A DNA stretch of 61,625 bases, the filler included. It is 14 parts of 14 records of this genome, joined end to end, with 100 filler letters (N's around TTAATTAATTAA, not from the genome) between each part and the next. Parts side by side here need not be neighbours in the genome. Positions count along the whole stretch, not along the records: positions 9,493 to 12,664 come from SRR15195285_7732; 13 more parts are not named here. The stretch is one strand, 5' to 3'. Under the pieces are notes generated by a model. It was not told where the DNA came from. It worked only from the letters and a program-made list of their open reading frames with translations, and searched no databases. Positions 382 to 46,109 of this stretch are shown here, one piece after another. The stretch's first letter is position 1. The number at the start of each line of letters is the position of its first letter. Made by a program: the position numbers and the translations under genes.

Positions 382-898
382 GTGAGTACACCTTTCAGCT
401 AGATCTATGGCGTCCCATTTAGTCTGTGCTGTTGCCGCCGCCTTTCCAGTCTCTGTGGCCTCGAATCGCTGCAGTCAAAAGCTGCCTTTCGTTTTGGAGT
501 GGCTGGGGGATTGGCAGCAGCGAGCCGACGCCACACAGAGCTGAAGACGGATCTGGAGCTCTGTGTAGCCTCAATCCGCTGCCGGCAAGCTCCCAGTCGT
601 TTCGAAACGAAAGGTGGCCGTAGCTTCTTTTTGCGCACACCGTCTCACTCACTGCGATTTGACGCCGTGGCGATGACAGGGAGGGTGGCTCTCAGGCGGT
701 CAGCAGGACGGGATCTGAGAAGCGTGTGAGTCTGGCACTTGTCACCAGCCTTGCGTTCGCTCTTCCTGGCTGTGCTGTGTTACGTTACACTACGCTATTC
801 TGCCCAGTCTTCGACTCCACCTCTTCAGATAAGCATCGTGCAGCCAATGCTGTTCGATTGTGCTGTTGATTCTGTTGCCCCCCTGTCTCGTGAGGTAG

Positions 899-3800
899 TC
901 CACGGAGGAGGACTCTGAGGAGGAGGATTTCGAGGTCGAACGTATTGTTGGAAAGCGAAAGCGGTCATCGCGAGTGGAGTACCGCGTGCGCTGGTACGAA
1001 AAGTCCACTTCCCCTTGCCAGTGTCTGGACAGTAATCCGCTCTGATCACTTTTGGGTCATCTTGCAGGAAGGGCTACGATGAGAGCGATGACACGTGGGA
1101 ACCGCTGCTGCATCTGGCCAACGCGAAGGCAAAGATCAAAGCATTCGAGCAGGCACAGGCGCACGCGAGCTCTCGTGTTGGCGAGCGAGGCGGGCGAGGC
1201 GGGCGAGGCGGGCGAGGCGGGCGTGGTGGGCGTGGTCACGGTCGCAATGGACGCGCAGCGACGGCACAGGCACCGGTCGCTACCGTCGTCACGGACTCTA
1301 ACGGTGGCAGCGCATTGACCAAGATGCATTACGCTGACGGGCCTGGTGCCGCGGCGGCGCGCTGGGCACTCCTGGAGGCCTCACAGAGCGTCACCGAAGC
1401 TTGGCGTGTAGCTTCCTTGCAAACGGGCGGTAGCTCTGTTGAACCAGCGGCTTACCACGCAAGCCACCAGGCGCCCGGCAGCCTGGGTTTGAGTGGACGT
1501 CAACGCAAATTTACGTGTAAGAAGTGCGGGACACCGAAGAAAGGTCCAGCATCGAAATGTCCATGCCAAAACACATCTCAGTCTGAACACGAGATGCCAG
1601 ACACACCAGCTCACGCGGCCAAAAGCCCAGACCGAGAGCTAGCACTGCATGCTGGCGATGAACATATTAATGGGAACGCTGCCAAGAGTGACACAGCGCC
1701 CGCGCCTGACGAGCCTGACAAGATCAAAGCTGGCTTCGCTGAGCTTGCATATCGTCCCACCTTCCACCACCACGAACAGCAGAACGGCAGGGCCACTATT
1801 CGCGTCGCTGTTACGGAAGACGGCGTAACATACGTGTCCATCGCGGATTTCTTGGAGTTCATCAAGGTCCACAACCGACTAAATGCTCAGAGCATGGCTT
1901 CGAATCTCATTATGGATGCGAACAAGAAACGGAAATACAAGCTCCTGCACGGTGCGATCAATGGTAGCAAACGGCGCACACCGATGATCCGGGTGGCAGA
2001 TCAGTTTCCTAAGTATGTATGCTCCATTGGGAAGCTGAAGGCCCTGAATTCAACGCTTCTAGAGCGTGATGCAGCTACACTGTGGAAGAATTTCTGCAAC
2101 TCAAGCCTTCGGGAGTGGTTTGAGCAGGAGCTAGAGAAGTCGAGGAGGGTAGACGGCGTGCTTGCGGAGTGGACGGATGAGCAGTGGCTGCACCGCACGA
2201 TGCAGTTGAACAACGCAGCTGCTACTGTCAAACGCCGTCAGCCCACGCGCAAACGGAAGATCTCAAGGCAGGAAGACACCCGCAGAAACAAGTGGGTGTA
2301 CCGTGAGCTCTCTAAATTGCTCGTCACTCTCCCCCTAGACATGAATCCTGGCGACACCTTCACTCTACGGGTTCCTGGCGTAGATGCGCTGGTGGATGTG
2401 GAATTTCCTGAAGGTGGCGTGCCAGGGAAAGCGATTGAGCTAAAGTTGGTCGTTCCGATCATGCAGAAGGTTCTTGCCAGCGACGTAGAGCCTGGTAGTA
2501 GGTGCATGCCATGCTACGATGAGCTCGACGAAGGGCAAATGCTGACAAATCTCCCTGCAAAGGAGCGACCGAAGAACCGGGTGCCATCGCTTCTGGAGAT
2601 ATCAGCGATGCGCGCAGAGATGCAGTGTCAACCAGGCTTGCAGCACGCTGACGTGTCTGCGGGCAAAGAATCTGTGGCAATACCTGTGGTGAACACCGTT
2701 GACGACGAAGTTTTTGACCTCAACGCGTTTCGATATGTGTCGACGCCTGAGTACCCGGAGAAAATTCAAGCTCTGATCGATGCAGCACCACCTGTGCCAT
2801 GCAACTGTACGGGAACTTGTGGTGGCGTAGGTGCAGATCTCTGCGGGTGTGTCGACAGGTACGGTGACGTGTACGATCTCGTTGTAAAGGTGGAGCTGAA
2901 GGCTCTGCCACCTAACCAGTGTTCTGTTCCTGCAAGTGCCGGTTCTGGTAGCCACGAGGGTGTAACACCGGGAGCTCGTCGCCGTCCCGCTCCGGGTGTC
3001 GCACGGCGTGTCCGCGCACGAAAAGTAGGGGAATCAGAGTGGACGACTTATCCGTCTGTTAATCAGGCGCACAAAGGAACAGGCGTAGATTACAGCGATG
3101 TTTTCAAATGCTGCAAGACGTTGCTTCCCGAAAGCGGCGGATACGTGTTTGAGTACGACACCAGTGCTGCAGATGAAACAGAAAAAACGTCGACCATGAG
3201 CGTGCAGAAGGGTAAGGCCTTGTCACATAAGGCCCCATCATCACCGACTGCACTATCATCTGGCAAGCAGCCGAGACTGTGGAGCTGTAAGACTTGTGGA
3301 ACCAAGAAGACGGCACCTAACGAAAAGTGTAAACAGTGCCATCCGGGAAGCTTTACAACGCAAACCCAGGCTCTGGAAAGCCCTAAGGTTCTGGAAAGTC
3401 TTGCGAAGCAGACCCCGGGATCCTGCGCTTTGCACAATCCAGCTAAAGCCTCGTCGGGATCTTACAGATATGACTGTGGTGCGCTGCTAGCAAAGGCTGT
3501 CGCCGACGCTCTTGGAGGGCTCGACGTGAGCTCCATTCACAGCGATGAGGATAATCATAAGACCGGCGGTGGCCTTGATGGTAAGGCGTCTGTGCAGTAC
3601 AAAACTCAAGTGGACAACGAGACGATGAGCGGCGTCGCGTCGCTGTTCGGCACGTCTGTCGGTGCCGTCCTAGCCAGTAGCAAACACTGGTATCCAGACT
3701 TGTCGGCCAACTCGAGAATGTTTCCTGGTACGTATGTGAGGCTGCCCGCACAAATCGGACGATTGGCAGCTGGATGTTTCGGTTTGATGAACATCGCAGG

Positions 3801-4763
3801 CACTAGCCTCGGGCCGCAAGAAGTCAACAGACGGCTTGCAAACCTGCAAGCTGCAGACGCATTATGGGAAGCGATCGAGGTGAAGGTCACTCGCTACGGG
3901 GCTTACCACAAGGGCCGGCTTGGGCCAGCCATTAGCTTCAGTGTGATACACGAGTGCACCAATGCGTGTAGCTGCCTGAAACCGCAGCAGGGACACGGTA
4001 GAACAACTGAAGGCTGTGGAAACCGCCACTTGCAACGAGGAATCCGGCCCGACGTGTTGCTAGAGGTGTTCCGCGCTGGGACTGAAAAGGGCTGGGGATT
4101 GCGCTCGCGGACGTTCATCCCGGCTGGAACCTTTGTCTGCGAGTACGTTGGTGAGATCATGACCGATACCGAAGCGAACGAGCGCGGAAGATTGAAGGGT
4201 CCAGAGTACTTGTTTGACCTGGATGTCGCAGTACAGCGACACCATGACGAGCAGCGGCAGAAAAAGAACAGTTTCAGGAAACAACAGAAGGACAATGACG
4301 AGCAGCGTGAAGATCATGTGGACGAGGAAGAAGGCGCCCAAGAGTTCGTGCGTTTGCTTGCATCTAGTCGCATACACCATGAATGAATGGCTGCTGGATG
4401 CGTGACAACATGTCATCGATACGATTTGCTGTCGCGCGCAGGTGATCGATGCCAAGCATGTCGGAGGCGTTGCACGGTTCATCAATCATTGCTGTGATCC
4501 GAATCTGGTGGTTCAGAACGTGCTTGCTGGGCATTCTGATGAACGTCTCACACGAGTTGGCTTCGTACGTTCGCCACATCCTGCTTTATCGCTCAGTTTA
4601 AGCGGACGCGATTTGATCAGACCTTTGACTGCTGCACGCACAGTTTGCGCTGCGAGATATCGAAGCTATGCAGGAGCTGTCGTTCGACTATGGAGAAACA
4701 ACCAGTGGAAAACACGGCGTGTGTCGATGTGGTTCAGAGAACTGCCGCGGAAAGTTTCAATAG
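899..4763 (+). CDS. Suv39/Clr4-like histone lysine methyltransferase (chromo - RGG - pre-SET - SET - post-SET), multi-exon
   Basis: Chromodomain FEVERIVGKRKRSSRVEYRVRW|KGYDESDDTWEP is split by intron 994-1067 and continues in frame into ORF 1315-4386. SET motifs KGWGLRS and FVCEYVGE are present. Intron 4348-4441 is followed by IDAKHVGGVARFINHCCDPN, and intron 4565-4643 by FALRDIEAMQELSFDY and post-SET CRCGSENCRG. Stop at 4761-4763. Confidence 0.9.
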
Positions 4764-5847: not shown

Positions 5848-5947
5848 NNNNNNNNNNNNNNNNNNNNNNNNNNNNNNNNNNNNNNNNNNNNTTAATTAAT
5901 TAANNNNNNNNNNNNNNNNNNNNNNNNNNNNNNNNNNNNNNNNNNNN
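5848..5947. other. Artificial contig-joining spacer (N44-TTAATTAATTAA-N44), first of 13
   Basis: Identical 100-bp spacers with stops in all six frames start at 5848, 9393, 12665, 18214, 23567, 29006, 33678, 37341, 40779, 46537, 50470, 54095 and 58311. Adjacency across them has no biological meaning. Confidence 0.99.
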
Positions 5948-6225
5948 AGAATTACAATTTGATTACGCGGGTTCATATCACACGGACTTGGGCAATGCGT
6001 GCGCGCTCCTGATGCGCAGGCGCATCGCGCAGAGGGACGCGTACGCGTACGTAGCACGGCGCCTCGGCGGGCCGTGACCTGTGGGACACTGCGAGAACGA
6101 TGTGCTAGGAACAGCACACTGGGACACTGGGGGCGAAGCGCTCCCGCAGTCTAGGCTCGCTCGCTTGTCTGACCATCTGAACAGGCTGGGCCGGTCGTGG
6201 TCGAGCTCCGTCGAGCGTGCATCAG

Positions 6226-9003
6226 ATGTACGAGGCGCATGGTCGAAGCGACGATGAGAGGAGGTGTTACGGAGGATTGACGCAGAGATTGATCGTTCTG
6301 GTTGCGTTTGGTAGCAGCTTCCCATCGCAGTCAGACGCTTGCCCCGCGGGTCAGTGTAGCACCGGCAGTACTTGCTGCGCCCTCTTGTGTGGTGATTGCG
6401 ACAACTGTGTCGATTGCGCCGCCGGGTCGTACTGCGCCAACTCTTGGCCAGCCGACGACGAGCGTGCCAAATGCAGCCCAAGTGGGGTATCCAGGGGTCA
6501 CGCTGCAGAGCTGTGCCCCGCGGGGAAGTTCGCGCTCGCTGGGTCCAGTGCTTGCACGGAGTGTCCTGTCGGCAAATACAGTGGGCACGCAGCTGGCTCG
6601 TGTATCCACTGCGCCACGGGGAAATTCGCTGCTGCGGTCGGCACGGAGACTTGCACAGACTGTGCAGTAGGCTACTCTCAGGCCAACCAGGGTCAGTCAG
6701 GCTGCACCGCATGCGCTGCAGGGAAGTATAGTAGCACTCGGAGCATGGTAGCATGCATCGACTGCGAACCAGGGAAGTACATGCCGATGGAAATGGCAAC
6801 TAGCTGCATTGACTGCGACCGCGGAACTCACCAGCCTGGAACAGGCCAGTCTTTGGAAACATCGTGCCAAGATTGCGCCATCGGGCGATATCATGACATC
6901 TCCAACGAGCAGCACCACTTTGTTGATACCCCGTGTACCCTGTGCCCGGCTGGGCGGACAACAGAGCGCGTGCGCAGTATCGAAGAGGATGATATCGACG
7001 CCTGCAACGCCTGTCTACCAGGAACGTACGGTACATCTGACAGACAGTGCTTGCAGTGCGTAGAGGGCCAGTACAGTAGCCGCTCAGAGAGCACGATGTG
7101 CATAGGCTGCAGAATGTGCACCGAGGGTGTCACCTACGAGAGCGCTACGTGCTTGGTGGGCTCCAATCACGATCGTACCTGCTTCCCATGTTCTACTTGT
7201 TCTCCAGGAGTCACTTTTGCACGGCAGAGTTGTACTGTGTTAAGCGACACGATATGCGACAGTTGTACGCAGTGCAGCGCGGGCGTATCGTTCGAAGCCT
7301 CGGTATGCACTGCCGAGCACAACCGCGAGTGTGTAGCCTGCTCAACTTGTGGTCCGAACGAGTTTGAGAGCCAACCTTGTGCACCGACTAGCAATTCCGT
7401 CGACGACAGAGTGTGTACAGCCTGTGTGGAGTGCGGAGAGGGCCAATTTGAGACGCGTGCTTGCGATGCTAGAGGTGATCGCCAGTGTTCCAACTGCTTG
7501 CAGTGTAGTGATGGACAGTACGAGACCGTGGCTTGTTCTCCACGCACAGACCGACAGTGCGTGGCATGTGATCGCTGTACTGCTGGTGCCTCGTTTCAAA
7601 ACGCCCCATGCACACCTGTCCGAAACACACAGTGTACCGTCTGCCAGACGTGTAGTCCTGGCAAGTATATGACAACCGACTGCGCGGACCAAGATAGACA
7701 GTGTGCGATGTGTCCAGCCGGCAAATATCAGTCAGCTGTGAACTCCAACGACTGCATAGACTGCAGAATTGGCCGGACATCACCAGAAGCAGCCATCTCT
7801 GAAGCTGAATGTGAAGATGTGGTCTGTGACGCTGGCCAATTCTTCTCGTTGTCTGAATTACTGTGTCGAGAGTGTCAGACGTGTGCCGCCGGCACTGAAA
7901 TACTTTCACAGTGCTCACCCACAGCGGACGCTGTTTGTGCGGCGTGCCCAATGGGTAAATACGGGCTGGGTGGAGAGTCCATGTGTATCGGATGCGATCG
8001 TGGTACTGCTCGGAGCAGCACTGGAGGCACAACCAAACGGGATTGTTTGCTGTGCGATAGTGGGACGTTTCCCGCGATAGACATCGACAGCATCCACACA
8101 CATGGCATTACTAGTGGCGCTGTGTACTGCGTCGCCTGCCCACCTGGCCAGTATGGAATTTCACAGACTGATCCAAATGATGCAGCAGGGAGCAGTCATG
8201 GTACCGATGGGACAGGAGCCTCTAGTAGACGCGTTGATGGCCCACTTGGCTGTGCTGTGTGCCCTATCGGTCAATTCCAGGCGCGGTTCAGACAAACACG
8301 TTGCCAGGCGTGTCGGCAAGGGCAGCACGTGGCAAGCACTGGCGCGATGGAATGTCAGACATGTCCTGAGGGTCGCTCCAGTCAGGCCGGTAGTGAGCTC
8401 TGCACGAATTGCTCGCCGGGAATGTACGCTGACCGGGGAGCACGCAGCTGCCTTGAGTGTCCACTGGGTCAGTACCAGCTTGGTCACGGAGCGGCATCGT
8501 GCATACGGTGTGGCTCATGGTGTCACGAGCACGGGACTTGCTCTGCTACGGGGGATTGCGACTGTAACACTGGTTTCACTGGTGCTCGCTGTGAGTCCAC
8601 AGATCCAACTGCAGTCTCCTTCAGTGGCATGGGTGCCGAGGGCTCTGCGACATCGCACCAACAGCAGTCACAAGGTCGGCCATGGGCGATGGTTTCTGCG
8701 GTTTTAGCGGCGGTTCTTGTCCTAGGTGGGGTTGCACTAGGCTGCATGCGCAAGAAAGACCCTCTCGGTATCCAAACTTCTGGGTTCAACCAAGACACAG
8801 CGACGATTGCCTCGGCAGCGACGGCGGACCTACCAAAGGCAAGTGTGGTTCCTTCCGAGACCGTCACAGATGCCAGCATTGTCACGGACATCCAGGCCAA
8901 CCCTTTGGAGCGGTCAGCCTCGAAAGTGCTGGCGACGGCGGTGCAGCGTGAGCGACAGCGGCAGGAGGACGAGCACGGGGCTGGCCAACCTTCGCCATTG
9001 TGA
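6226..9003 (+). CDS. Cysteine-rich type I membrane protein (ephrin-receptor-like GCC2/GCC3 repeats, TNFR-like repeats, EGF, TM)
   Basis: Repeated CxxCxxGxY/F and CxxCxxC...C.....D..C units. An EGF module CHEHGTCSATGDCDCNTGFTGARCE is followed by TM segment WAMVSAVLAAVLVLGGVALGCM and RKK. Confidence 0.85.
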   Translation: MYEAHGRSDDERRCYGGLTQRLIVLVAFGSSFPSQSDACPAGQCSTGSTCCALLCGDCDNCVDCAAGSYCANSWPADDERAKCSPSGVSRGHAAELCPAGKFALAGSSACTECPVGKYSGHAAGSCIHCATGKFAAAVGTETCTDCAVGYSQANQGQSGCTACAAGKYSSTRSMVACIDCEPGKYMPMEMATSCIDCDRGTHQPGTGQSLETSCQDCAIGRYHDISNEQHHFVDTPCTLCPAGRTTERVRSIEEDDIDACNACLPGTYGTSDRQCLQCVEGQYSSRSESTMCIGCRMCTEGVTYESATCLVGSNHDRTCFPCSTCSPGVTFARQSCTVLSDTICDSCTQCSAGVSFEASVCTAEHNRECVACSTCGPNEFESQPCAPTSNSVDDRVCTACVECGEGQFETRACDARGDRQCSNCLQCSDGQYETVACSPRTDRQCVACDRCTAGASFQNAPCTPVRNTQCTVCQTCSPGKYMTTDCADQDRQCAMCPAGKYQSAVNSNDCIDCRIGRTSPEAAISEAECEDVVCDAGQFFSLSELLCRECQTCAAGTEILSQCSPTADAVCAACPMGKYGLGGESMCIGCDRGTARSSTGGTTKRDCLLCDSGTFPAIDIDSIHTHGITSGAVYCVACPPGQYGISQTDPNDAAGSSHGTDGTGASSRRVDGPLGCAVCPIGQFQARFRQTRCQACRQGQHVASTGAMECQTCPEGRSSQAGSELCTNCSPGMYADRGARSCLECPLGQYQLGHGAASCIRCGSWCHEHGTCSATGDCDCNTGFTGARCESTDPTAVSFSGMGAEGSATSHQQQSQGRPWAMVSAVLAAVLVLGGVALGCMRKKDPLGIQTSGFNQDTATIASAATADLPKASVVPSETVTDASIVTDIQANPLERSASKVLATAVQRERQRQEDEHGAGQPSPL

Positions 9004-9612
9004 GCAAATCTGAACCCGGCAAACGGCGCCCCTGCGCCCCCTGCATTGAGCTTTGATGGCCTCCCACCGCCAGAGTCAGACACTGCTGTTCCCCAAGATG
9101 ATGAACAGTTCTTTCATGGAGATGGTAGGGCCCCATGCCCAGTGTCAATCAGTGAAAATTTGCTAGCATCGACCCACTACACGCGCATTAACTCGACCCA
9201 TTAATTTTACGCTTGCCGTCGGCGCTCTTCGCTGCAAGGTGATAGTCGCGTCCAGGTGTACTTCGAACCCACGCATTGCACACCAACGCCGCCTTTAGTA
9301 AGACGACGACGACGACGAAAGATCCTCGGTTGTGTAGCACCACGGATCGACATTGTTAAACGCACTGCTGGTGGCCAAGATCGTTGTGCGCANNNNNNNN
9401 NNNNNNNNNNNNNNNNNNNNNNNNNNNNNNNNNNNNTTAATTAATTAANNNNNNNNNNNNNNNNNNNNNNNNNNNNNNNNNNNNNNNNNNNNAAGATGGA
9501 GACCACAGTCGCATCGTACCGCGTAGAAATCCCACCCGATGTTGTACGAGTAGCACCGTACCATCCGAAATGCCTGGAAGCGGACGCACTGCTTGTGCGG
9601 GTTTGTAGAAGG

Positions 9613-12600
9613 CTATTCATTCCCGCCGCCGAATAGTAGCCCGGACCACAAAAGCAACGCATTGTTGTTTGGTAGTGGGCCGGGGACCTCCATCAGACGG
9701 AGGCGAGACGGCAGCTGCACCTCCCAGCTCAGATATGCGCCTTCGGTGAAATTCGATACGTACCTGCGCTCCAGCGAATAAAACTTGAGCGGAACAACGG
9801 TAAAAAAGGATGCAGGATTCCAATACAAAACCGTCAGCGATCAAGAAAATCATTCGTCGGAGTAAATACTGTGTGGGCGCTGCGAGCTGCAAGTTGTCGT
9901 ACCTGCTCCAGTGAGTATAAACCTTGGGATTAGTTTAAATATTGCAGGATTCCAACACAAAGCTGACCATCCTGTGGCCAAGAGAATCAAGTCGTCGGAG
10001 TAGGTACTCGCGCAGCTCGACAGCCATCCTACGCCCCTGGCGGTCGAAGTCAACCACATATAGGCTAATGTTGTGCTTGCCACTGCCGCCAATATCAATT
10101 GTTGCCACAGTGCCTCCGACGACTCCGCCAAGCGCGCGGCAACTGGCAGCGGCTCCGCCAGTGGGCGGCTGCAGCGCACGGCGGTCGGAAGAGCAGTTCG
10201 CAAAGTTTGGTCTGCCCGCCTTGCCACGTACACCCGTGTATGGCGTGTTGATGTGAACGCCTGTGACATATGCCGGTAGCTGCTGGTTGTCCACGGAGGC
10301 AGCCTGCCAGCTCCAAAACAAGTGACCGTCTACTCCAAAGTTTTTGCGCCAATCACCACCACTGGTGTAGTCCGCCCCGACGAAGCGATCGCGGTATGAC
10401 GGCTCGACCGCCATTACAGCTCCTGCAGCGGTACCGCCACCAGTACTCGTCGCACTGTCCGCCAGCGTAGACGCCGTAGCAAACGCGATCGTGAAACTAT
10501 GGCTACCAGACCTCAGGTTGCGCACCAGAAGTGCATCGTCTCCCCATTCCAGGTGCGCAACCGGCGTCTCGTCCACTTGTAGCGACACTGCCTTCGCACC
10601 ACACAGCGGTAGCGCAACAAGCTGCGCCATGGTGCCTGGTGGCACATCGAGACTGCTCGTCCCATTGCAAGCAAAAAATGCGCAAATTTTTGTGTCGTCC
10701 TTCAAAGTCTGAACCCCATGGATCGAGCTCAGCAGGTTGGGTGTGACAGGATCTAAGAAGGGCGTAACACTGAAGTTCTTCCATCCTGGTGACTCCGGTT
10801 TTAGACCAACCACGTGGTGCGTAAGCCATGGCGCAACCCCGGATGCCCACGGATGGCAGTGAGACATGTAGCCAGTCTGTGAATTTGGTGTTGCCTCGCC
10901 GAACGAGAATAAAGCGTTCCACTCAGCTGAGTAGGTTTCCCAGTAGGTCGTCGCACCGAGTCGATTCATGCCGTGAAAACATCGCCGAACCAATGCCAAC
11001 GCGGCACGCATTGATGCCTTCCGCCCGCCGTCCAGCCGTAGGCGCGATATTGACTCCAAAATGAAGTAGGTGTTAAAGGGACTGAAACTACATATGTGCG
11101 CCGGATTGCTGAGCAAGCTATCGTATATCTGCTGCTCTTCGGCAGGAGTCGTCAGGCCAGTCAACACAGCATTCGTCGCGGCGTGCATTCCGTAGCACTC
11201 TGTATAAGAGTCGTTGCAGGCAGTTGATATCAATCCTCGCTCTCGTTCGAAATAGCCTGTCAGCGTTTCATTAAGAGCACTCGCACCAGAACGCATCGAA
11301 GCGCTGCATGCGGTACCACAAAGGGCTACAGCCCGGGCGTATTCTCGGGCTGTTTGAATCGAGAGCATTTTGTAGTATCTTTCTTTCTCGGCTTCGGAAG
11401 GCGGCGAGTGCTCAAAGTCAGCACCGATCCGTGAGTCGCTGCCACAGAAGTTCTGTACCTTGGGCTTCGCCCAAAATGCCACCGAGGTGGCAAATTTTTT
11501 CTCAATCAACGGAGCCCAAGAGGTTAGCGATGCGACGTCATTGCTGTGCAGAAAGTAGTCTACTGCTGAGAGCACGAAGTACATGTCGTAGGAGATGATC
11601 CCATTATCCGTGGTCTTTGTGCGATCGGTATTCCTCTGCACGATTTGGGTTCCAAAAGACCCACCAAACGCAGCCAGCGAAGCTTTCTGTGCCAGGTGTG
11701 CATCGCCAGTCCAGCTGATGCGATCTCCCCGGTCCATCAAGATGCTGCCAAACCCCGCAGTGCCAGCGTACCGGATGGTAGCGACACGGGTGGTGTAAAT
11801 GGCAGAATACCATACTTCCTCTAGAGCCTGGGCTCCACTGCCAGGTTCGGCGTCCGTCGCAGGTGGCGAGCCACGCGCTTCAAACGCGTGATCTGCGTAG
11901 TTCATCGGTATCGCTTGACACACCGCCGTGAAATTTGACACGGTGAACTTGAACGCCTTGCTTCCAAGACTTTGGACGTGGAGCCAGCCGTACCGCAGGC
12001 CCTCGTAAAGCTCGTTGTTTAGGGCAAGTTGGTACCGTCCAGGAGTACCCGAAACAGCTCGCACATCTTTCGTGCAATTGCCATCGTTGTTCTCGCCAGT
12101 AGGTGTCGTGTACTGAGGCAACGTATACTCCGACGATGAGAGCGCAATTGAGACGGTGCTTCCAAGCTGCGCTCCTAGATCAGCTGAGTCGAACTCTAGC
12201 CAACCGGCACACTCCGTTCCGTAATCAAACGCAATCGATCCGGCTCCTGTCACGACCATTGCTCCGACCACAGAGCTGCCGTGGAGCAGCGAACTGGCAC
12301 CATTGATTGTCGGCGGTATCTGTTTGCTGAGAATTCGCCGTGGCTGGCGTCGGTACTGCTGAAAAGATTGGTTGGCGATGGCAGCGGCATTCCAGCGGTA
12401 GGTCACAAGTGGATCTGGTGAGGCTGGCGCCGCAGCTCCAATGAAGGCCCCACCAGAAAGCTCCGGATAGTTGAGAAAGGGCGGTTGCTTTCCAGGAGGC
12501 GCCGGCGGCGGGGCATCGGTGCAGCCTTTGCTCCCAACTTTACACCATGTGTTCCCCGCTGCCTTGTCGGGCCGGTCTGTCCAGATGATGGCGTCACAGG

Positions 12601-12664
12601 CAGTAGAAACGATGCCCGTGGCGGTGTTGGTAGGGCTATAGACGAGAGAGATGCTCCCGTTCTT
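9613..12664 (-). CDS. Alpha-L-rhamnosidase-like glycoside hydrolase (GH78), 5'-partial, two 3' introns
   Basis: Motifs DRGDRISWTGDAH, GATTYWE and SHCHPWASG. The frame is open to the contig edge at 12664. Removing introns 9903-10007 and 9764-9869 completes the C-terminus ELRE-YDNLQLAAPTQ-YVSNFTEGAYLSWEV...GGGNE*. Confidence 0.9.
9764..9869 (-). mobile_element. Introner-like element / intron copy 2 (106 bp)
   Basis: Minus strand reads CA|GTAT-TTACTCCGACGA...TGGAGCGCAG|GTAC. It shares TACTCCGACGA, TGATTyTCTTG, TTTGTrTTGGAATCCTGCA and CTGGAGC with copy 1. Confidence 0.72.
9903..10007 (-). mobile_element. Introner-like element / intron copy 1 (105 bp)
   Basis: Minus strand reads GA|GTAC-CTACTCCG...TGGAGCAG|GTAC. 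It has a 4-bp direct repeat GTAC, imperfect terminal inverted repeats, and homology to the neighbouring intron. Confidence 0.75.
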
Positions 12665-12764
12665 NNNNNNNNNNNNNNNNNNNNNNNNNNNNNNNNNNNN
12701 NNNNNNNNTTAATTAATTAANNNNNNNNNNNNNNNNNNNNNNNNNNNNNNNNNNNNNNNNNNNN

Positions 12765-41057: not shown

Positions 41058-41423
41058 TCCCCAGCAGCCCCGGCAGGTCCGTCTCCACAGACCTTAGGAG
41101 CGTCGAGGAGGGCCCAGACTGCTCACGTACGCCATACAGACAAGCTCACGTTGGGCGGGATCCTGCGCTGCGCCTGCGGGCGGGTCATATCCACTCGCGT
41201 GTGGTGGGCTGTATTGATACAGTAGTCGTGAGCAGCAGGCGGCTGTGCTGGAGGACACGTACACAGTGCTGGTGTTCACTAGCGTGGCGATACCACAGAC
41301 GAAGACGAAGAGAGAGAGACACGCAGACGGGTGGCGATTCGCTCTCCTCCGTCGCAGATTTTTCGAGTCGATTGACGGAAGGGTGAGATGGTGAGGGAGT
41401 GGCATCCTTGATCTGGCTTGCAC

Positions 41424-44400
41424 ATGTCGGGAGAGGACGGGGACGGGGCCAGTCGGCTCGAGGAGTTGCCGGAAGAGGAGCAGCCGGACACTGGCGAGGT
41501 GGCGGCAGAGAAGGCGACAGCAGAGGAGGAGGAGGAGCAGGGTGTGGGATGGGAGATCGATGGGAATGCGCTCGGCTGCCTCGCGGCGGAGAGTGGGTTT
41601 CGGCGGCAGTGCTACGCCCTGTTCCGCAACAACGTGTTCCAGGGGGTCGTGTTGGTGCTGATTGTGGCCAACACGGTGCTGCTTGCGCTGCAAGGGCCAC
41701 GGCACTCCCTCGGCGCGGGCTTCGACGACTTCGTGGCGTGGTTCGACATCGCCATCACGGGTGTATTCACCGTAGAATTGTGCGCTGGGATCTGCGCATT
41801 GGGGTTCGTCAAGGGTGAAAATGCGTATCTGCGCAACATGTGGAATGTGCTGGATTTCGTCGTAGTCATGGGCATCTACGTGTCGGCGCTCGCGATGCTG
41901 CTTTTTGGAGCGGATCTGGAGGCTGGGGCCGTGCGAGCGTTCCGCGCGCTGCGGCCGCTGCGCTCGCTGCGCTTGTTCAAGGGCCTGCAGGGCATTCTCG
42001 ATGCCTTATGGTTGACGCTGCCGTACGTGTCAACCGTCGTGGGGATGCTGTCCTTTTTCCTAATCATCTTCAGCACGATGGGTGTTGCACTTTTCGGTGG
42101 GACACTGTCACGCGCGTGCAGGCAGAGCACCGAGCTGTTCAGCACGCAGCCGTACCTGGCAGCAGCAGCGGGTAACATCAGCATGGTACCCACGGGCTGC
42201 CCGCCCACGATGGCCTGCGCGGCGATGGCCACCGACCCCCAGAACACATCGAAGATGGTCGCTTGGTCAGTTGACGGAGACGACATGTGCGCAGCAATTC
42301 CGTACGACCTGGACCCCACCCACTTAGACCGGACTTTCGAGACCAAGTATATAAGCTACGACAACGTGCTCTACTCGTTTCTGACGCTCATGGTAGTAAC
42401 CACGATGGACGAGTGGCCGCTAATCGCCCACCGAATGTGGCAGTCGGACGGCAACGTCGGATACGGCGCCTGGTGGTTCGTTGTCGTCGTGGTTCTGTTG
42501 GTGTCGCTACTCACGGTGAATCTATTCACTGCAGTCGTGAGCTATGGGTTCGGCAAGATGAGGAAAGAGCTGCACAAGAGCGCTTTTACCGGAGAGGAGG
42601 TATTCGGCAAAGGTCCTGTTGAAGAGCGGATCGGTCCAGGTGACGACAAAGAAACGTTTATGTCAGAGCGTCCGTTCCCTTTCGTTCCCGCGATCTCACC
42701 GGGTGCCTACGACCTGGTGCACTCGAATGCTTTTGAATATGCAATTCTGGGAGCGATCGTGGGCAACGCGATATGCATGGCATCAGAGTACCACGGCATG
42801 CCGCAGGGGCACAAGGATGCGCTGTTCTTCCTTGAGGTGGGCTTTTTGGTCATCTTTACGATCGAGATGCTGCTCAAATGGACAGGAATGGGCATGAACG
42901 CGTACTTTGCGGACAGGTTCAACTGCTTTGACTGCAGTCTGGTTGTGGTCGGGATAATGGGGTTCGTCGCAGACTTAGCCCTTGGAGGCTCCTCAAGCGG
43001 ACGGGTGGTGCGGATTCTGTTCCGGATGTTCCGTGTGGCCAGGCTGCTTCGCTTGGCGGGCAAGGAAAGCACTGTGGGCATTCTCCTGAAGACGATCTTT
43101 TCCAGCTGGTCAGCGATTGCGAATCTGCTCGTGTTCACTTCGTTCACATTGGTTGTCTTCGCCATCATCGGTATGCATACATTCGGCTACACCTGCCATG
43201 GTGGCGAGCTGTCGGATGCAGAGACGCCACGCACTAGCTTCGCTTCATTTTCCGACGCGATACTGGCGTGCTTTCAAGTCATGTCAGGGGAAGACTGGGC
43301 GCCTATTATGTACTACTACATGCACTGCTCCAGCCCAGTCGGCGCCTCGATATTTTTCATTAGCTTGACGGTGTCCACCGGGTTTGTACTTGTGTCCATG
43401 TTTGTCGCCGTCATCTTGGAGAACTTTGCATTAGCAGAAGAACAGAAAGCACGAGCGCAAGCTGAGAACCTCAAGTCAAAAGTAACCAAGAAAGTAGAAG
43501 ACGATAGCATGGAGGAGTTGCCACAGTGGCGGTGGAACTGTCGCGCTATTTCAGAGAGGAAGTGGTTCGAACGCATTGTATTGCTTATCATCATGGCAAG
43601 CAGTGTCGTCATGGCGCTCGAGTACCCAACCCAGCAGCAACTAACAACCGACCAGCAGGAGTGGCAGGCTACACTCGAGAACATTGGACTGTGCTTCTTC
43701 GCTGGGTTCTGCCTTGAAGCTGCCATAAAGTTGGCTGGTTACGGAATTGTGAAGTACTGGAGAGACCCGTGGAACCGTCTCGACTTTTTGGTAGTACTGA
43801 TGGGAGCAATTGACCTAGTGGTCTACGCTGTTAGCGGATCAAAGAGCAATGTTACGAACATCCTGCGCATGTTCAGAGTGCTGCGACCGCTGAGGCTTAT
43901 AAAACGCAATGAGGGCATGGTTGTGATCGTCAACGCACTGATCGGTTGCATCCCGATGGTCATCGGCGTCGTCGGCCTAGTAGCGTTGCTCTACATCGTG
44001 TTCGCCATCATTGGCATGCATATGTACATGGGCATGATGTTTGGTTGTGCTGGGCAGTCGGATACGAACGCAACTGGCGATCTCTCAATGGACTCATTGA
44101 GCAATTCAAGTGGTGACTTCGATATGAGCTCATTGAATGAAGTAGACTGTCTTCAGCGTGGTGGTGCTTGGGAGCACGTCGCATACTTCTCGTTCGATGA
44201 CATATTTAAGAGCTTTAAGACTCTGTTCATTGTTTCAACCACGGAGGGATGGGTTACTGTCATGGAGGCCGCCATGGACACCCCATCTGTGATGGGTGAT
44301 GCCCCGTCCAAGAACAACTCACAGCTAGGAGCCGCCATCTATTGCTGCACGTTCATTATCTTCGGGGCGTTCTTCTCAGCCAACCTGTTTGTTGGAATAC

Positions 44401-46109
44401 TTGTCTCCTTCTTCGGCCAGAGCAGTGGGAATGCATTATTGACCGAGGGGCAAAAGCAGTGGGTGCAGCTCAACATGCTGGCAATGCAGCTTGCTCCTGA
44501 CCCGATCATCCCGCCTGAGCACCCAGCCCGACGAGCATGCTACAACATAAGTGTATCTCACAAAACCGAGCTCTTCATAGGCGGCGCGATCATTGTGAAC
44601 ACCTTGATGCTTATGCTTGAAGCCTACCCCATGGACCAAGGCTTTGCGGACCTGATGGAAGTGTGTAATTTTGTCTTCCTGCTGATCTTCACGATCGAGA
44701 GTGCGATCAAGATGACTGGACTAGGTGTGAGGTCTTACTTTTCGGTATCGCCGTGGAATCGCCTGGATTTCACCATTGTGGCAATTTCATGGATCTCCAT
44801 GGCAGCTGAAGGGCTTTCTGTGTTTTCCGGCGGCCGTGCGCTGCGCGTCTTCCGGTTGCTGCTGCTACTCAAGAACACGGAGTCTTTACGAACACTCCTC
44901 CGGACACTAGTGCTCTCGCTTCCGCCGGCCATGAATATCACCCTCTTGCTGACGCTTGTGCTCTTCGTGTTTGGCATCATCGGCATGCAGCTCTTTGGTG
45001 GACTACCGCTTGGTAATCCGTTGGAAGACGCAATCAACACCTACGATAATTTTGACACACTTCCCGCCGCTATTCGCGTGCTCTTCCAGATCGCGACAGG
45101 TCAAGACTGGGTTTCCAAGGCGGAAGAGCTCGAGCAGAAGATGCTGGCGGCGGACTACGTGGGTCAATCGCTGGCTTTGCCTTACATGGTGGTATTCTAC
45201 ATCTCATCCGTATTCATTTTCATCAATCTCTTCATCGCGGTTTTGCTCGAGAACTTTGAGCTCAACTTCGACCCGGATGCTCTGGAGATTAAAACCGCAG
45301 ACATGGCCAAGTTTAAGGCCGCTTGGGAAGAGACCGTGGCCCCAGGCGAGATGCAGATGCCAATCAGATCTGTCAAGCGTATGATAGAGAAGTCTGATTT
45401 AGGTGTCCTCTCACAGGTGATGGACGACTCACAGTGGTGGCCGCACCTGCTTGCAAACATTGGCTGGGACACGGCGAAAGATCCTACCGACGAGGATGTA
45501 GTTGGCTTTCGTAAGCTGCTGCTCTCCCTGGCTTTGATGTTCGTTTCAATCGATGCTCTGCCGCTAGAGGAGCGGATTGCTGAGGCGCGACGGCTGACAG
45601 ATCGTGCAGAACGGACGGCCAGCCGCCTCATTCACGCCTGCATTGTGGCTAAGTTACATTTGAAACGCCCCGAGCAGTACTGTGATCCCGAGTTGCGTGC
45701 GAGGCACGCGAGCGACCCAGACTTCTTCAAGAAGTACCGGCACGCGGCGATATTCTGCAGGAACATGATGGTTGTACAGATAGTGGCTGTCAACAAAATC
45801 AGTGCAGAGCATGTAAGAAACAATGACGAGCATTTGTTGGAGCTCATGGCCCTTCAGGCAGAAGTGGTGCGTCCCTGTGTCCAGCAACTCACACCAGCCG
45901 CGTTTATCCTGCAACTAGAGTCCATCTGCGTGCTTCGCAGCGACTCACCACCAGCGCTGTCTATTAATTGATCGCAGGGGGCTGATGGTGGCGAGTCCAA
46001 CAGCAAATTGCCACCCGGCTCGACGGAGTCGGACGACGGAAGTTCCACCCGCTTCATGAATCCAATGGCAGACCCGGACTTGGACAACGAGGACATTGAA
46101 GCGGAGTGA
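41424..46109 (+). CDS. Four-domain voltage-gated cation (Cav/Nav-type) channel alpha subunit
   Basis: Four 6-TM repeats with WNxLDF motifs and S4 helices (e.g. RAFRALRPLRSLR). Pore loops TMDEW, SGEDW, TTEGW and TGQDW. Probable last intron 45867-45977, stop at 46107-46109. Confidence 0.95.

Follow-up and report, generated by a model that had tools for sequence, protein, structure and literature searches.

How do two neighboring introns of similar sequence come to lie within a single gene, and do they descend from a mobile element able to create an intron upon insertion? The question is raised by a rhamnosidase-like (GH78-like) gene found in a stretch of 61,625 nucleotides, hereafter the window, a term that designates the whole of the DNA analyzed. 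The window is composed of 14 contigs (3.2-5.8 kb) connected by 13 joins of the form N44-TTAATTAATTAA-N44, located for instance at 5848-5947, 9393-9492 and 12665-12764. Since the stretch consists of joined contigs, the true context of the gene is limited to 9493..12664 and the genes lying across a linker are not genuine neighbors. Introners are the best-supported route of burst intron gain in eukaryotes; they are known mostly from marine protists and occur in Micromonas and Aureococcus. A preliminary description of this DNA had assigned the two introns to a family of this kind. The reading favored here, with moderate confidence, is that the two segments, named A and B, are real lineage-specific spliceosomal introns that arose from insertions of a short non-autonomous introner in a probable picozoan host.

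The gene is read on the minus strand. Exon 1 (10008..12664) is a single uninterrupted frame of 885 codons, supported by tblastn with 5/5 homologues, whose 5' end is cut by the end of the contig. It is followed by intron A (copy 1, 9903..10007, 105 nt), by the 33-nt exon 2 (9870..9902), which encodes the (Y)DNLQLAAPT(Q) motif conserved across all homologues, by intron B (copy 2, 9764..9869, 106 nt) and finally by exon 3 (9613..9763), whose 49 codons and stop (9615..9613) specify the conserved C-terminus YVSNFTEG...LLFGGGNE. Both introns are of the GT..AG type and of phase 2, each splitting a codon after its second base, immediately 5' of a Tyr codon. Intron A starts with GTAC and ends with CAG, exon 2 opening with GTAC; intron B starts with GTAT and ends with CAG, exon 3 opening with GTAC as well. 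An in-frame TAA is present in A (9937..9935) and a frameshift would result from retention of B. The anatomy initially proposed, with two GT-AG segments placed on either side of a 33-nt exon, in phase 2 before Tyr, is recovered in full and all of the colinear blocks are present.

The likeness between A and B extends over their full length. Global alignment yields 79/114 identical columns and a score of 36 (z about 10), to be compared with a mean of -13.3, a standard deviation of 4.7 and a maximum of 3 in 1000 shuffled controls, and with a top score of 4 when random 105-mers of the stretch (n=1000) serve as controls. The common sequence comprises a 5'-terminal block, TACTCCGACGA, located at 9992..10002 in A and at 9864..9854 in B (minus strand), and a central 19-nt block with one R position, at 9943..9961 in A and 9811..9829 in B on the same strand. 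The 13-mer TTGGAATCCTGCA occurs twice in the window for 0.08 occurrences expected, a count reached in 0/100 shuffles. This likeness ends at the intron borders: the upstream exon flanks are unrelated and only GTACG is common to the downstream ones. A profile built from the copies and searched against the 61,625 bases of the window retrieved no match beyond A and B, the next best being at E=1 to 3. An exact 11-nt match to TACTCCGACGA at 12126-12136 (+), in antisense orientation within the part of this gene that codes for the conserved motif SSSEYT, was rejected as a chance occurrence, about 3 chance 11-mer matches being expected for an element of this length.

The existence of the two introns is supported by comparison with homologous proteins. 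Removal of A and B joins ELRE|Y DNLQLAAPTQ|Y VSNFTEG, and the full-length homologues P0003, P0004, P0005, P0007, P0009 and P0011 display the sequence ...ELREY(D/N)NLQLAAPTQYV(S/D/A)N... unbroken over both sites. In tblastn, the alignments of 5/5 homologues follow frame -2 to 9863, then frame -3 from 9765; identity over exon 3 amounts to 70-87% for 4/5 of them (40/46 residues with P0003), the alignment of P0005 being continued into intron B. Because the homologues read across both sites and the tblastn frame jumps, the conserved C-terminus requires that both segments be removed exactly at the proposed GT/AG borders. A second strain, represented in run X3 by a single contig over the whole stretch, differs at 5/211 intron nucleotides versus 17/2838 coding nucleotides (Fisher p=0.015), with a 2-nt deletion in B and no difference in exons 2 and 3 (181 nt), which is the pattern expected of non-coding DNA within a constrained gene. 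Exon 3 contains neither stop nor frameshift and appears to be still translated. Since its conservation equals that of the remaining protein, in spite of a drift of about 30% between the intron copies, we infer that A and B are removed by splicing.

Both introns are absent from other lineages. The homologue clusters covering the two sites, namely the six proteins listed above together with P0157, P0158, P0159 and P0160, are without either intron in 10/10 cases. Several of these clusters are plain open reading frame (ORF) calls on genomic contigs, which an intron would have broken. The picozoan proteins of EukProt are ORF calls as well and include intron-derived residues, as P0125 shows, and the ORF of the species itself, P0153, enters intron A and ends there. 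Because the 10/10 clusters of other lineages read across both sites, A and B are lineage-specific gains.

Two observations on relatives concern the same region. The ORFs of P0154 (70% identical) and P0155 (83%) break after NISLY, 20 codons upstream of A (~10068, minus strand) and again before a Tyr codon, at what is probably another lineage-specific intron; when the insertion was compared with A, B and the third copy described below by degenerate back-translation, no significant link to the family emerged, the score being equaled or exceeded in 47 and 80 of 300 shuffles. A relative is represented by an RNA-library contig of 151 nt (X15, matching 9867-9908 with 5 differences in 42 nt), which contains exon 2 joined directly to the exon-3-like sequence QYVSNCTEGVYL, preceded on the 5' side of exon 2 by non-coding sequence that includes a stop and ends with GAGCAG. 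Site A may be occupied in this contig by an intron that is older or has been spliced in part, intron B being absent.

A motif scan of metagenome contigs uncovered a third full-length copy on a contig of 1012 bp, designated L008. This copy (606..505, 102 nt) is a GT..AG intron of phase 0 with an internal stop; it matches the profile over positions 2-108 with E=4e-12 and the terminal block TACTCCGACGA is invariant in it. It resides within a zinc-type dehydrogenase (MDR) gene, between ...NSVD and VVYDCIGEAG. The exon that follows starts at position 26 of the Pfam ADH_zinc_N_2 domain (E=4.9e-15) and the intron coincides with an exact gap of 34 codons, stop included, relative to 4/4 dehydrogenase homologues (P0013, P0016, P0018 and P0019). 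The flanks of this copy are unrelated to the window contig and the blastn match between the two contigs is restricted to 50 nt inside the intron. A, B and the L008 intron hence constitute a dispersed family in non-paralogous genes, with a likeness confined within the intron borders. The pairwise identities are 79/114 for A and B, 74/108 for A and L008 and 76/110 for B and L008. A and B are unlikely to be the product of a recent local duplication, because they are no closer to each other than either is to L008, in a star-like relationship. The objection that would have reduced the family to a local tandem duplication is lifted by the full-length copy in an unrelated gene. Where the preliminary description expected many copies, the count so far is of 3 full copies, distributed over 2 loci, and of 2 to 3 partial hints.

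Two of these hints come from short contigs. A contig of RNA run X14 (9813-9852) displays the 5' half of B, followed by a different and shorter 3' part ending ...GAGCAG, then GTTA. A second DNA contig, from X1 (about 9991, depth 7.2), spans the 5' block of A and differs by a deletion of 1 nt. Both are likely to be further copies of the family. A second metagenome match, L009, consists of the 24-nt pattern alone, in an AT-rich interval flanked by two genes of prokaryotic appearance, and was taken as chance. The dehydrogenase gene of L008 is itself much more intron-rich than the genes of the window: two further short introns unrelated to the family (~705-826 and ~911-999, minus strand) were located by eye and from tblastn frame changes, at CSAR|NIEYC and LILG|GSSG. 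P0013 reads through a 99-nt insertion at the first of these sites; this read-through intron (CSAR|NIDYC), compared with A, B and the L008 copy by degenerate back-translation, showed no significant link to them, 52/300 shuffles scoring as high. Protein Data Bank (PDB) look-ups for two of the L008 exons gave nothing usable.

The host organisms can be approached through the nearest named proteins. Picozoa are an uncultured sister group of red algae. An ORF starting inside the L008 intron (P0012) clusters with P0125, an entry of EukProt EP01044 'Picomonas judraskeda', COSAG03, and because of this clustering the third copy is taken to occur in a single-cell assembly of a picozoan. For the rhamnosidase-like protein of the window, the best named relative is EukProt 'COSAG02', about 78% identical, which is tabulated as Picozoa sp. 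COSAG02 (PMC10268365, in the table entry concerned). These co-assembled single-cell genomes trace to Schon et al. 2021, as stated in a passage of a preprint. The window organism is probably a different picozoan and the third copy may belong to another species. The contig 9493..12664 is present in 19 marine or seawater metagenome runs from 16 studies. Ten frames of 696-1519 codons are unbroken in the window, whose genome looks intron-poor and compact.

The ends of the copies bear on the insertion mechanism. The downstream exon opens with GTA in 3/3 full copies and the upstream exon ends with GA, CA and AT, without the AG of a proto-splice site. The downstream GTAC is host sequence, because homologues that lack the introns keep the Tyr residue found after A and B; the GTA(C) with which the introns open either duplicates the host GTAC or belongs to the element itself. 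In a 4-nt duplication register, the left and right tetranucleotides are GTAC/GTAC for A, GTAT/GTAC for B and GTGC/GTAG for L008, a perfect duplication in 1/3. In a TA register, the corresponding dinucleotides are TA/TA, TA/TA and TG/TA, and the element reads C(C/T)TACTCCG...CGGAGCAGG. One change is needed in the TA register versus three in the 4-nt register, and a TA duplication fits as well as GTAC or better. In the relevant part of the study of Gozashti et al. 2022 (PMC9860276), a target site duplication (TSD) is considered ambiguous if supported solely by matches across introns; the match is of this type here and the TSD is ambiguous by the same standard. The terminal inverted match CYTACTCCG/CGGAGCAGG amounts to 7/9 positions in A, 3/9 in B and 7/9 in L008, with a longest perfect run of 5 for the 6 nt or more asked of terminal inverted repeats, the chance of an inverted match of at least 7/9 at a fixed register being 0.0013. 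No conserved RNA fold was found in the three copies: pairing of the ends is seen in B only (z -3.2, for -0.4 in A and -1.5 in L008) and the consensus fold reaches -7.4 kcal/mol with 2 covarying pairs. No match to the introns was obtained in Rfam at E up to 1. The idea of an element spliceable in both orientations was dropped, for in the reversed orientation only A would end with AG, and neither B nor L008.

The introner reading can be summarized as follows. The element, of about 100 nt and non-autonomous, would carry its own 3' end ...GGAGCAG and would insert 5' of a host GTA(C), the host G and the duplicated target together forming the GT donor. Splicing from this GT to the AG of the element would restore the original coding sequence exactly. 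The element would transpose as DNA, duplicating a few target bases (TA or GTAC), and would end in short inverted sequences, CYTACTCCG/CGGAGCAGG. A and B, separated by 33 nt, would represent either independent insertions or local hops into neighboring target sites. An architecture in which the donor is supplied by the target and the acceptor by the element corresponds to a published introner type, as described in a section of PMC9860276.

A number of results weigh against this reading. The working definition of introners calls for four or more similar introns in one genome (Gozashti et al. 2022, PMC9860276, as worded in the part that defines them), a threshold left unreached by 2 copies in roughly 60 kb of this genome, and the profile search detected no further copies in the other roughly 58 kb. 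Viral contigs gave 3 and 4 pattern matches, all limited to the seeded motif; contigs of prokaryote genomes gave 0 and 26 matches, all limited to the seeded 19-mer; and the translated intron frame used as a protein query (57 candidates) retrieved only its own locus, P0153. At L008 the left tetranucleotide does not follow the differing target (GTGC/GTAG), which gives no locus-specific support for a duplication and does not bear out the GTAC TSD claimed at the outset. The inverted repeat is short; in B, where 2 nt are inserted, it falls to 3/9 when ungapped. No transposase-bearing partner was found, nor any pair of termini enclosing more than an intron in the window. The 3/3 full copies are sense-oriented introns, none being extragenic or antisense, which also fits a spread at the RNA level. 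With L008 at 90% identity or more to COSAG03, a different picozoan assembly, and the window protein at only about 78% to COSAG02, the third copy may come from a second species.

The remaining adverse results come from transcript data. Two RNA-library and two DNA runs were examined in the form of contigs only, at a likeness of 80, parts of the gene being without RNA cover. No spliced joint across A or B was present in the contigs of these four runs, and the expected junctions 9763/9870 and 9902/10008 are missing from those of the two RNA runs. One RNA-library contig is unbroken over 9717..9929, a segment that takes in the whole of B, exon 2 and 27 nt of A, at a depth of 11, and another over 9970..10159, across the 5' border of A, at a depth of 3.5; exon contigs have comparable depths. 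The unspliced contigs may reflect DNA carry-over or retained introns, two situations that contigs cannot separate. The seamless splicing put forward in the preliminary description is consequently a homology-based inference. Taken as a whole, the introner proposal is partly supported: the precise lineage-specific insertions and the family relationship with the L008 copy stand, whereas many copies, a GTAC TSD, clear terminal inverted repeats and splicing stay at the rank of proposals.

Several of these points are shared by a competing explanation, in which the introns move as RNA. An excised copy would be reverse-spliced into a transcript, which could be its own pre-mRNA at a distance of 33 nt, before reverse transcription and recombination made the insertion permanent; no target would be duplicated and the downstream GTA would express a site preference. 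We regard this as unlikely. It accounts for sense, genic copies with exact GT..AG borders in 3/3 cases, for two copies 33 nt apart in one transcript, for a copy number that looks low, for 4-mer flanks that do not co-vary at L008 and for the failure to see a transposase partner in the window. The upstream exon ends GA, CA and AT nevertheless lack the AG expected of sites resembling ligated exons, the downstream GTA mirrors the first bases of the intron itself in 3/3 copies and the inverted ends reach 7/9 in two of them. Furthermore, the distance between A and B is no smaller than that of either to L008, and the conserved stable fold of fungal elements is missing (z = -0.4, -3.2 and -1.5). More doubtful still is the full form of this scenario, a family spread by excised introns that reverse-splice 5' of G|UA in transcripts and return to the genome as copies. 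Such a transposition of introns through reverse splicing has long been proposed and, to our knowledge, has never been caught in nature. If it were true here, two sister introns in one transcript, sense-only copies, a low copy number and non-co-varying flanks would be its footprint, in intron-poor Picozoa.

It is improbable that A and B are unspliced insertions in a gene truncated or turned into a pseudogene in this lineage, ending at the TAA of A. The RNA-library contigs, unspliced at exon-like depth and devoid of any spliced joint, and the gene callers, which end the protein inside A (P0153), fit such a decay. On the contrary, removal of both segments leaves exons 2 and 3 intact and in frame. 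The similarity of exon 3 to P0003 (40/46 identical residues) is no lower than that of the rest of the protein, whereas the inserted copies differ by about 30%, and in the second strain exons 2 and 3 (181 nt) show 0 differences, for 5 in the 211 nt of the segments. Both segments have in addition kept GT..AG, and the L008 copy behaves alike in another gene. Very improbable, finally, is an origin of B from A (or the reverse) by local duplication or gene conversion, the likeness with L008 then being that of a conserved intron-hosted small RNA: A and B are indeed adjacent and the 151-nt X15 contig gives a hint that site A could predate site B, but the exon between them is not duplicated, the likeness ends at the intron borders, A-B identity is no higher than A-L008 or B-L008, neither an Rfam match (E up to 1) nor a conserved structure was found, the strongest conservation lies at the extreme intron ends and not in a core, and 10/10 other lineages have neither intron.

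The host gene had been described as a bacterial-type GH78 gene. The GH78 part of this assignment stands only at the profile level, a profile of 10 homologues matching PDB entries 2okx (rhamnosidase B, E=6.2e-12) and 3cih (E=1.7e-9); it does not at the level of Pfam, where Bac_rhamnosid6H gives E=0.0022 and 17.8 bits for a cut-off of 24.5 bits. The rhamnosidase-like family is rare, with 9 near-length and 8 shorter matches among 5.8 billion proteins, and all of these matches originate from marine metagenomes or picozoan single-cell assemblies. They all possess a conserved C-terminal module (NLQLAAPTQ...LPNNN) for which no Pfam model exists.

The other contigs of the window harbor several long uninterrupted frames. 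A four-repeat voltage-gated cation channel is encoded at 41412-45968 (+) by 1519 uninterrupted codons (Ion_trans, E=2.9e-187); the taxonomic signal of this channel in a protein atlas, where Haptophyta are the commonest among the nearest clusters, is weak and was not used. A SET/Pre-SET protein is found at 1036-4383 (+) and a cysteine-rich protein similar to TNFR and ephrin receptors at 6181-9000 (+). A scan for other introns in the window by joining ORFs produced 19,132 candidates and was uninformative, and three ORF ends viewed by eye as possible introns turned out to be gene ends instead.

Among known systems, introners have been recorded in 175 of 3,325 genomes, in 548 families (PMC9860276, according to the part of the article that gives these totals), and are said in a portion of PMC12130899 to derive from many transposon types. 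Family 1 of Symbiodinium microadriaticum (PMC9860276) is, from the account given in that section, a short non-autonomous element whose insertion yields an intron, as proposed here; in the introners of this species the architecture is the same, with the donor taken from the target and the acceptor from the element, and the mRNA length is unchanged. The resemblance is one of architecture; the present case differs in that the TA or GTAC duplication is unproven here, the ends match at 7/9 positions, the full copies number 3 and the host is a probable picozoan. IE1 of Micromonas pusilla (PMC11282704), an element resembling miniature inverted-repeat transposable elements in a marine picoeukaryote, has short TSDs and terminal inverted repeats and likewise draws one splice site from the element and the other from the TSD, in the paragraphs devoted to it. 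The roles are reversed with respect to the present case, since the IE1 element supplies the 5' GY and its 3-nt TSD the 3' AG, and Micromonas has thousands of copies as compared to very few in the sequence searched here. The introner-like elements of ascomycete fungi, as presented in part of PMC9860276, are of low to moderate copy number, strictly genic and sense-oriented, and appear as similar introns in unrelated genes, all of which is also seen here; unlike them, the present copies have a downstream GTA that mirrors the intron start, partly inverted ends and no conserved fold. Picozoa are not named in the main texts of PMC9860276 and PMC12130899, whose supplements may list such genomes, and none of the papers in the collection searched contains both 'Picozoa' and 'introner'.

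Because the mechanism is already known and the family looks small, the value of the finding is incremental unless activity at the scale of the whole genome appears. The family probably adds Picozoa to the lineages with introners. It would provide a case of intron gain in an otherwise intron-poor-looking genome, one that can be dated by comparison with close relatives abundant in seawater metagenomes.

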